This document shows positions 2,922 through 9,882 of a stretch of DNA of 64,000 bases, piece after piece. Source of the DNA: Octopus vulgaris (lineage: Eukaryota). The notes under the pieces were generated by a model. It had not been told where the DNA came from. It did not search any database and worked only from the letters and a program-made list of their open reading frames with translations. The stretch covers positions 11,222,001-11,286,000 of the forward strand of contig OX597827.1 of assembly GCA_951406725.2 (NCBI GenBank), read 5' to 3'. The translations under genes and the position numbers were made by a program. Position 1 is the stretch's first letter. The number at the start of each line of letters is the position of its first letter.

Positions 2922-2946
2922 TTAAATATAGCCAATTAGGCAAATT

Positions 2947-3028
2947 GTCTACTATAGACGCTGTATCTGCCAGATCATGTGATTTCATCCTGTTTTGGGC
3001 CCATCAGTGGCAGATGTCCTGTAGTGAC
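2947..3028 (-). ncRNA. Extended type I hammerhead ribozyme, partly decayed
   Basis: Minus strand: ATCTGCCA-CTGATGG-GCCC AAAACA GGAT-GAAA-TCA CA TGA-TC^TGGCAGAT; 8-bp stem I plus outer helix. Confidence 0.75.
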
Positions 3029-3132
3029 ATAACAGCTGAATTTCACTGACAACAAAAAATAGAATTTCAGTGTCTTTTTAAGCGCTGATGTTGCGAATAG
3101 TTAGCAAACTTATTACAAAATAATTAATTATA

Positions 3133-3716
3133 GGCGCAGGAGTGGCTGTGTGGTAAGTAGCTTGCTTACCAACCACATGGCTCCGAGTTCAGTCCCACTG
3201 CGTAGCACCTTGGTCAAGTGTCTTCTACTATAGCCTCAGGCCAACCAAAGCCTTGTGAGTGGATTTGTAGATGGAAACTGAAAGAAGCCTGTCGTATATA
3301 TGTATATATATATATATAGTTAATCCAAACAAGAAAACACAACAACGCGAGGACGTGGAACAAATATAGTATTATTGGACACTCAGGAAAGAAGGGAAGA
3401 AGGAGGGTTTAACGTTTCGGGCGGAGCTCTTCGTCGGAAACATAGGAGAAGGAAAGATCCAGAGAAGGGAAGACAGAGGAAAAAAATCGCCAATGGTACA
3501 CACGAGGTCACATCTGTATTTGTCCACCGCAACATAGCTTAACAACCGATGCTGGTGTGTTTACATCCCTGTAACTTAGCGGTTTGGCTAAAGAACCTGA
3601 TGGAATAAGTACTAGGCTTACAAAGAATAAATCCTGGGGTCGATTTGCTCGACTAAAAGCGGTGCCCCAGCATGGCCACTGTCAAATGACTGAAACAAGT
3701 AAAAGAGTAAAAGAGT
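3133..3716 (+). mobile_element. SINE family A interrupted at its TA tract by a ~195-bp insertion (3319-3513)
   Basis: Head at 3133, body resumes ~3514, tail to 3716. Confidence 0.85.
3319..3513 (-). mobile_element. Penelope-like pLTR remnant carrying a minimal HHR (3407-3441)
   Basis: Minus: GTTT-CCGACGA-AGAGC TCC GCCC-GAAA-CG-TT^AAAC; inserted in (TA)n. Confidence 0.6.
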
Positions 3717-3857
3717 GACAGAAGCAGTATTGATATTAAAAGGTAATCTTTATATCCTACCTAATGTGGACATTGTGTTAGAACACTGAATACTGCATTA
3801 TATACCCAGAGAGAACCTCTCATATAAACATGTGGTGCATAAAAGCACTTGTATTTA

Positions 3858-4200
3858 CATCATCATCATCATCATCATTTAACGCCCGCTTTCCATGCTA
3901 GCATGGGTTGGGCGGTTCGACTGGGGTCTGGGAAGCCAGGAGGCTGCACCAGGCCCAGTCTGATTTGGCAGTGATTCTACAGCTTGATGCCCTTCCTAAC
4001 GCCAACCACTCCATGAGTGTAGTGGGTGCTTTTTACGTGCCACCGGCACAGGTGCCAGGGGAGGCTGGCAACATCCACGATTGGTTGGTGCTTTTTACAT
4101 GCCACCGGCATGGAGGCCAGTCAGGGTGGCACTGGCAACGGTCACATTTGGATGGTTCTCTTACGTGCCATGGGCACTGGTATCACAACTACAATTTCCA
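3858..4200 (-). mobile_element. SINE family C ((GAT)n tail, GGTTGGCGTTAGGAAGGGCATCCAG core, internal GGCACGTAAAA repeats)
   Basis: Matches 19364, 26190, 52070 and 59308. Confidence 0.8.
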
Positions 4201-9592: not shown

Positions 9593-9600
9593 TGTGTGAC

Positions 9601-9713
9601 ACTTACAACACCTATGTTTCCCAAGCGGTCCCCCAACTAAGTACTAACTAGGCTCGACATTGCTTAACTTTGGTGATTGGATGAAAACCGGTGCTTTCAA
9701 TGTGATATGGCCA
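9601..9713 (-). pseudogene. 5S rRNA pseudogene
   Basis: Minus: GGCCATATCACATTGAAAGCACCGGTTTTCATCCAATCACCAAAGTTAAGCAATGTCGAGCCTAGTTAGTACTTAGTTGGGGGACCGCTTGGGAAACATAGGTGTTGTAAG; colinear with invertebrate 5S, with many CpG-type changes. Confidence 0.9.
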
Positions 9714-9882
9714 GAATTTTAGCTGAACAAATCGACTTCAGGACTTATTTTTTAAGCCTAGTACTTATTCAATTAGTCTCTTTGCTGAACCGTTAAGTTA
9801 TGGAGACATTAACACACCTACACTGGTTGTCAAATTGTGGTGGGGTACAAACACAAAAACAAAGACACACATATGCATAGAT

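Follow-up and report, generated by a model that had tools for sequence, protein, structure and literature searches.

The hammerhead motif on the minus strand at 2967–3013 of the window (the whole stretch of 64,000 nucleotides of Octopus vulgaris DNA analysed here) belongs to a decayed, likely inactive copy of an old 345-nt non-coding hammerhead family. The family is likely an animal non-LTR retrozyme, likely copied by a Penelope-like RT and GIY-YIG enzyme from a likely circular RNA, and we hold this reading with high confidence. The window copy itself is ordinary dead repeat DNA. A Penelope machinery has been proposed for animal retrozymes (PMC7229834; 10.64898/2026.07.22.740005), and the family adds modestly to this open point: the old 345-nt family displays the Penelope insertion footprint directly.

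Hammerhead motif in the window

The motif and its surroundings comprise the following features.

2967–3013, minus strand: type I hammerhead motif (Rfam RF00163, 24.4 bits, and sequence)
3013–3008 paired with 2972–2967, minus strand: helix I, 6 bp (sequence)
3007–3001, minus strand: core CTGATGG (sequence)
3001, minus strand: core position 9, G in the window and A in the family (A 57, G 4, gap 2 among 63 copies)
2987–3000, minus strand: helix II GCCC-AAAACA-GGAT with a 6-nt loop (sequence)
2986–2983, minus strand: GAAA (sequence)
2983–2974, minus strand: helix III ATCA-CA-TGAT (sequence)
Between 2973 and 2972, minus strand: predicted cleavage position, after AUC, monomer position 146 (place in the fold)
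3711–3864, minus strand: upstream piece, 5'-truncated, monomer 187–340 (nhmmer, E = 2.9e-41)
2943–3128, minus strand: downstream piece with the hammerhead, monomer 338–345 and then 1–176 (blastn to the concatenated family model)
3131–3712, no strand assigned: nested insertion, about 580 bp long, interrupting the monomer near position 340 (the monomer continues on the far side)
3411–3437, within 3318–3540, minus strand: minimal-hammerhead-like motif with a changed core, outside the 345-nt family (sequence)
2697–2935, no strand assigned: very high-copy repeat adjoining the copy and cutting off its 3' side (contig pile-up)

The minus strand of 3028–2947 agrees with the sequence-only reading in all letters and coordinates, those of the core, helix II, GAAA, helix III and the cleavage position included. 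It also gave an 8-bp stem I, ATCTGCCA/TGGCAGAT. The letters of this stem are present, but the stem is not a feature of the element, since helix I of the family has 6 bp. The two outer A-T pairs occur together in 2 of 160 copies, the window copy included. Helix I of the window copy, extended to 8 bp, shows a pair probability of 0.98.

In a 601-base scan, Rfam Hammerhead_1 matched 3013–2967 with 24.4 bits (E = 0.0015). The Infernal check suggested for the motif therefore gave a match, below the gathering score of 34 bits. The motif is absent among the 150 of 461 Rfam matches listed for the whole-window scan. Folding of the 96-nt motif stretch resulted in a z-score of −0.50, no better than shuffled sequences, and the lowest-energy fold is other than the hammerhead. 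Thus, the case beyond chance rests on the paralogues. The strict core pattern matched the window once, at another site, against 3.2 matches expected by chance.

Elsewhere in the window, a 5S rRNA match is located at 9600–9718 on the minus strand (91.4 bits); several of its pairs are broken, and it is probably a pseudogene. The microRNA matches in the Rfam scans of the window and the loci were rejected as microsatellite or hairpin noise.

Layout and decay of the window copy

The motif had been described as isolated. It is instead part of a 345-nt repeat unit, and the window copy is one monomer in two minus-strand pieces, 3711–3864 and 2943–3128. The upstream piece starts after a (GAT)n microsatellite and differs from the nearest subfamily at 21 of 142 non-CpG positions. 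In the case of the downstream piece, the nhmmer match is 3117–2941 (unit positions 2–178, E = 1.9e-44), and differences from subfamily 4 are found at 28 of 156 non-CpG and 9 of 20 CpG positions. According to the family model, the window contains no monomer piece beyond 3864–3711 and 3117–2941. No frame of at least 110 aa overlaps 2943–3864.

The segment 3131–3712 is regarded as an insertion because the monomer reads on across it and its pieces match many unrelated loci. It consists of abundant repeats, which we take to be SINE-like, and a second repeat bearing the minimal-hammerhead-like motif. This second repeat is also found in one GIY-YIG locus, L173 (93% over 182 bases). As the two pieces are continuous across the insertion, they form one arm, which started at position 187, crossed the junction and reached at least position 176 of the next unit. 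On the other side of the copy, thousands of contigs per run stack on 2697–2925 in all four runs compared. The locus L013 (1002–1449) and the window copy are both split by the same kind of abundant repeat near unit position 330–340. This position, beside the TA-rich long end, may be a preferred insertion site.

The nearest subfamily of the window copy, subfamily 4, has the helix II GCCC-AAAACA-GGGC. Relative to subfamily 4, the 3' strand of helix II in the window copy differs at two positions, and a CpG-type change breaks the palindrome of helix III. Helix II of the window copy consists of two Watson-Crick pairs, one C-A mismatch and one G-U pair, and its mean pair probability is 0.24, whereas that of the subfamily 4 model is 1.00. 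The core fails the CUGANGA consensus at position 9, which is G at 3001; the 63 copies counted at this position are unselected, that is, not picked by the core pattern described below. A9 of the hammerhead core is needed for activity. A literature search found no paper on a change at this position. The divergence of the window copy, 19%, is like that of other copies. Judged from the sequence, the changes fit neutral decay, and the copy is very likely dead and predicted to be unable to self-cleave. Two tandem complete motifs are the criterion for an active element in Li et al. (2026); the window has one broken motif.

Expression was checked in the assembled contigs of four RNA or guessed-RNA runs, from which strand, ends and circles are not readable. 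No contig specific to the window place was listed in these runs. Three guessed-RNA runs cover 2960–3010 at low depth; the 80% likeness and the single-base gap in loop II suggest that this cover comes from paralogues. The insect-metagenome RNA run does not cover 2960–3010. The contigs of runs X1 and X4 over the motif have two and three other letters, respectively, two of them in helix III, and the depth of the X4 contig is 2.7. Most words shared with the run contigs come from the neighbouring high-copy repeat.

The 345-nt family

The genome (2.8 Gb in 227 contigs) was searched with the motif at the DNA level. The search yielded 42 matches; 40 of 139 candidates were scored, with identities of 70–89%, self aside. 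Alignment of the loci showed the element to be longer than the motif, a unit of 345 nt whose copies join head to tail. A pattern with GCCC/GGGY and an intact palindrome gave 0 genome matches, and a looser helix II was used next. The resulting family core pattern, in which the inner helix II bases are free, gave 182 matches against 0 in the reversed control. As this pattern recovers 6 of 37 copies in one independently found set and 2 of 26 in another, the size of the family is estimated at roughly 1,100–2,400 hammerhead-bearing copies.

The working set consists of 147 loci, 297 fragments and 160 whole hammerheads; 60 of 70 further listed places were added. The duplicates L046, L067 and L082, the loci L061–L066 of other families, arms shorter than 61 nt and arms touching a locus edge were left out of the counts. 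The view that the window holds a decayed monomer of a retrozyme-like family, whose canonical type I hammerhead is distinct from the minimal ones, is borne out by these copies.

Five subfamily models were obtained by k-means, with unit lengths of 341–344 nt. The length is 344 nt in four of the five models; a base at position 74 is missing from two subfamilies whose loop II has 6 nt and present in two whose loop has 5 nt (positions 74 and 123). In 19 of 22 loci, the fragments of an insertion belong to the same subfamily. The 190 fragments measured include no young copy: the closest is 13.7% from the family model, and the median is 21%. The median non-CpG distance within an insertion is 0.205 for 41 tandem pairs and 0.218 for 39 inverted pairs, which corresponds to about 10% decay per copy. 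At an assumed cephalopod substitution rate, the family would be tens of millions of years old. In the locus L106, an otherwise old copy, an inverted fragment pair shows 0 differences over 106 sites, which points either to recent inverted duplication or to an error of assembly.

A general hammerhead pattern gave 1,338 genome matches against 194 in the control. The unit was absent at the motif in the first 19 distinct places and in six Rfam loci, a small sample in which no young descendant was found. Several further canonical-looking hammerhead families (L225, L226, L246 and others) are unrelated to the 345-nt unit. The Rfam search of the genome gave six matches, none from the 345-nt family. The best Hammerhead_1 match of this search, L061 (45.5 bits), is a single copy in a 3-kb locus; its helix II is GTCC/GGAC, and it is unrelated to the 345-nt family. 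The 345-nt model does not match L062, L063 or L066, which appear to carry a long-hammerhead type.

Conservation of the ribozyme fold

The core, the 6-bp helix I and the palindromic helix III are present in all five subfamily models. The core is intact in 24 of the 63 unselected copies. The core together with every helix pair is intact in 14 of 160 copies overall and in 3 of the 63. Both a sub-threshold covariance-model match and paralogues with an intact core were thus found, the two results whose absence would have counted against the sequence-only reading. The 14 fully intact copies include no same-strand pair within one locus; two same-strand hammerhead fragments are present in 15 loci. Intact natural paralogues such as L012 permit a direct cleavage test.

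The helix II variants in the family are ACCC/GGGT, GCCC/GGGC, GACC/GGTC-like and AGCG/CGCT-like. GTCC/GGAC, which had been proposed as the ancestral helix II, occurs in 0 of 160 copies. Among the 160 copies, the pair 120–131 is CG in 51, AT in 32 and GC in 24, and it is paired in 76% against 40% when shuffled (0/2000). The pair 122–129 is paired in 77% against 55% when shuffled. All four helix II pairs beat every shuffle, the shuffles ignoring relatedness. By corrected mutual information over all column pairs of the unit, 120–131 ranks first and 122–129 third, above most subfamily-linked column pairs. The inner helix II pairs were free in the search pattern. The covariation across subfamilies shows that the ribozyme fold was under selection in the source elements, which retained a working fold over a long history.

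Helices I and III are conserved and nearly invariant, and show little covariation. The flanking rod is also mostly near-invariant; 3 of 14 rod pairs beat the shuffles (70–185, 67–188 and 69–186). The last base of loop II is A in 144 of 160 copies, the one observation that hints at a tertiary contact of loop II with helix I; directly 3' of helix I, most copies read UU. Core cells are changed in 19 of 250 cases against 13.3% expected (p = 0.007). We read this low core change either as selection in the source elements, which varied among themselves outside the core, or as an effect of alignment anchoring; later selection is also compatible with it. The Rfam gathering score was reached by 0 of 20 loci picked for good-looking motifs, and sub-threshold hammerhead matches were found in three of six loci scanned.

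The circular folds predicted for the five subfamily models are 60–66% paired, with z-scores of −4.8 to −7.2 against 60 shuffles each. In the monomer folds, those of the subfamily models included, helix III has a pair probability of 0.00–0.05. Canonical metazoan type I hammerheads cleave preferentially as dimers, owing to their weak palindromic helix III (PMC4209133). The weak helix III of the monomer folds agrees with such cleavage.

Shape of the insertions

For the analysis of insertion shape, 218 arms in 146 loci were aligned to the concatenated model. The 3' ends of the arms lie near position 345 in 78 cases (15 expected) and near position 310 in 72 cases (20 expected), and 5 lie near the cleavage site at position 146, against 13 expected. 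These fixed priming points are about 165–200 nt from the ribozyme cut, which argues against the self-cleaved linear end as the priming site. The 5' ends are spread. A cluster of 5' ends at 195–215 (27 of 218 arms) may reflect stalling before the rod; locus selection could also cause it.

Head-to-head pairs number 49, in 48 loci, and tail-to-tail pairs 0. In 19 pairs, one long end is combined with one short end, the offset being 24–46 nt with a median of 36. At least one end lies outside both classes in 26 of the 49 pairs, and both ends belong to one class in four. A microsatellite lies no more than 30 nt from the end in 53 of 150 cases; the random expectation is 14%. Arms longer than one unit account for 50 of 218, and the maximum is 837 nt (about 2.4 units).

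Penelope-like elements are described as having partial tandems, an inverted 5'-truncated copy and a one-sided tail of 30–40 bp (10.1101/2021.04.23.441226). The pattern of arms, pairs and ends matches such insertions, and on this analogy a Penelope-type enzyme likely mobilised the family. Intact RT and GIY-YIG frames (781 aa) are present in the genome. The loci L187, L188 and L189 have young intact RT and GIY-YIG frames of 771–781 aa with many near-identical genome copies, and L187 is flanked by 456-bp direct repeats of 99% identity.

Template of the copies

In the first 87 loci, the cleavage site is crossed by 87 of 137 arms and the unit junction by 45, the former count being inflated since many loci were picked for holding a hammerhead. 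As arms cross the cleavage site and the junction and can exceed one unit, the template was a circle or an uncut multimer, primed internally. The same family and a Penelope-type enzyme could have used a linear multimeric transcript of tandem source arrays, in which case the hammerhead only trimmed transcripts. We consider this possible though rather unlikely. Uncleaved multimers would explain the arms over the cleavage site and the unit junction just as well. The two fragments of an insertion are closer than the between-locus median in 37 of 41 and 32 of 39 pairs, yet they are nearest neighbours in only 1 of 80. Thus, a single template molecule is not demonstrated by the within-insertion pairs. 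Against the linear template, no long source array is present in the 146 loci, where the longest arm is 837 nt; the monomer of 341–344 nt has strong circular folds in all five subfamily models; and circles have been demonstrated for other animal retrozymes (PMC7229834).

A more speculative extension, to which we give little probability, is that the family preserves, as fossils, a population of viroid-like circular RNAs whose diversification took place in RNA form and not in genomic master arrays. It would account for at least five ribozyme lineages, the compensatory helix II changes, the near-constant length of 341–344 nt and the repeated capture by a Penelope enzyme at two internal points. If true, successive stages of an extinct RNA replicon are preserved in the genome as a time series.

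Partner element and other origins

The unit was found in 1 of 38 GIY-YIG stretches, a small sample next to the 6,136 candidates in the genome. Penelope-like frames match 2 of the 147 loci, outside the units. In one of these, L038, a remnant of a Penelope-like frame is located upstream of the copy on the same strand. The unit is present in 0 of 29 sister loci of this arrangement, which have their own 3' end. The relatives of L038:560–935 (L195–L224) constitute an old Penelope-like family with copies about 80% identical, similar in age to the 345-nt family; they carry a minimal-hammerhead-like motif in the 3' region and end in TA or CA repeats. This family is a candidate partner by age only.

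These loci bear on a doubtful explanation in which the 345-nt unit is the pseudo-LTR (pLTR) of an autonomous Penelope-like element, now extinct, whose 5'-truncated ends survive as the copies. The insertion shape is as in Penelope-like elements, Xenopus retrozymes are reported to resemble pLTRs (10.64898/2026.07.22.740005), and L038 has its same-strand remnant upstream. However, 35 of 62 fragments reaching position 1 have a head-to-tail partner upstream, the rest having an inverted arm, an insertion or no neighbour detected. Penelope-like frames occur in only the two loci mentioned, and the L038 layout is not repeated in its sisters. According to PMC4209133, the pLTRs of metazoan Penelope-like elements usually contain minimal hammerheads, whereas that of the 345-nt unit is canonical. 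The unit as the pLTR of a sampled Penelope-like element was rejected for the tested loci (1/38 GIY-YIG stretches and 0/29 sisters); a long-ago pLTR origin of the unit is possible.

It is highly improbable that the window copy has been domesticated as a functional ribozyme or structured RNA, in the manner of the conserved hammerheads in amniote introns. The 8-bp helix I of the window copy, with its high pair probability, and the somewhat smaller change of the family core relative to other positions would suit such a role. Against it, core A9 is changed, helix II is broken and the divergence of 19% is ordinary; the copy was split and truncated by later repeats; the contigs of two other runs add two helix III changes; and the fold is no better than shuffled. 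Satellite DNA arising by unequal crossover or DNA-level movement, with the hammerhead-like motif as a passenger, is hardly credible in spite of the head-to-tail units, since the copies are dispersed over at least 20 chromosome-scale contigs with a longest arm of 837 nt (which also speaks against the satellite-like option of the earlier reading), 3' ends are fixed and 5' ends variable, all inversions are head-to-head (49 vs 0) and helix II shows compensatory change.

Proposed cycle

For the preferred reading, a Penelope-copied retrozyme with a circular template, the following cycle is proposed. Source copies with tandem units would be transcribed. Their hammerheads, as the covariation suggests, would cut after AUC and release a monomer of about 344 nt, the cutting probably being best as dimers through the palindromic helix III. 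The monomer would then be ligated into a highly paired circle. As the insertion shape suggests, a Penelope-type enzyme would nick AT-rich or microsatellite DNA, and cDNA would start near unit position 345 or 310, both fixed points, often on both strands, and continue past the cleavage site and on round the unit. What was left in the genome are head-to-tail arms whose 5' ends vary, together with head-to-head pairs. The window copy was then split, truncated and altered in helix II, in the palindrome of helix III and at A9 of the core.

Comparison with known systems

Literature on hammerheads in octopus, in cephalopods and in retrozymes gave no description of the 345-nt family; Repbase, Dfam, supplements and subscription papers could hold one. 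The words 'octopus' and 'inverted' each have 0 occurrences in the main text of PMC7229834.

The hammerhead resembles the metazoan type I of RF00163 in the 6-bp helix I, 4-bp helix II, short palindromic helix III and purine-rich loop II ending in A, as far as these are described in PMC4209133. Unlike RF00163, the family has different helix II sequences, a helix III of 3–4 bp and sub-threshold scores, and the window core is changed.

Penelope-like elements with GIY-YIG (Craig et al. 2021, 10.1101/2021.04.23.441226) share with the family 5' truncation, partial tandems, microsatellite-rich flanks, an inverted 5'-truncated copy and a tail of 30–40 bp on one end. Unlike these elements, the 345-nt family has no coding frame, its hammerhead is canonical and not minimal, and the whole element is the repeated unit.

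In the text of Li, Clavereau and Pollet (2026), the Penelope origin of retrozymes is backed by co-occurrence and pLTR similarity in 35 genomes, which include no cephalopod; the invertebrates are three insects and one coral (10.64898/2026.07.22.740005). The family is like the vertebrate retrozymes described there in the proposed non-autonomous mobilisation by Penelope, and in both cases the dispersed monomers are dead offspring. It is unlike the Xenopus retrozymes, for which co-occurrence and pLTR similarity are the evidence; here, the evidence is the insertion architecture, and no homologous pLTR was found.

Animal non-LTR retrozymes are reported as tandem units of 150–450 bp with type I hammerheads, and the unit is 350–390 bp in mussel and 330 and 350 bp in axolotl (Cervera and de la Pena 2020, PMC7229834). 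Their circles are expressed in coral, mussel and axolotl, and Penelope-like elements are named as the likely partner in the same report. The family is old, its arms reach at most about 2.4 units in contrast to the long arrays of those retrozymes, and it is known from DNA alone. Like them, it has a non-coding unit, of 345 nt, with one canonical type I hammerhead, head-to-tail copies, a predicted highly paired circle and co-occurrence with Penelope-like elements. The family works like animal non-LTR retrozymes and, by the sequence features tested, belongs to them.
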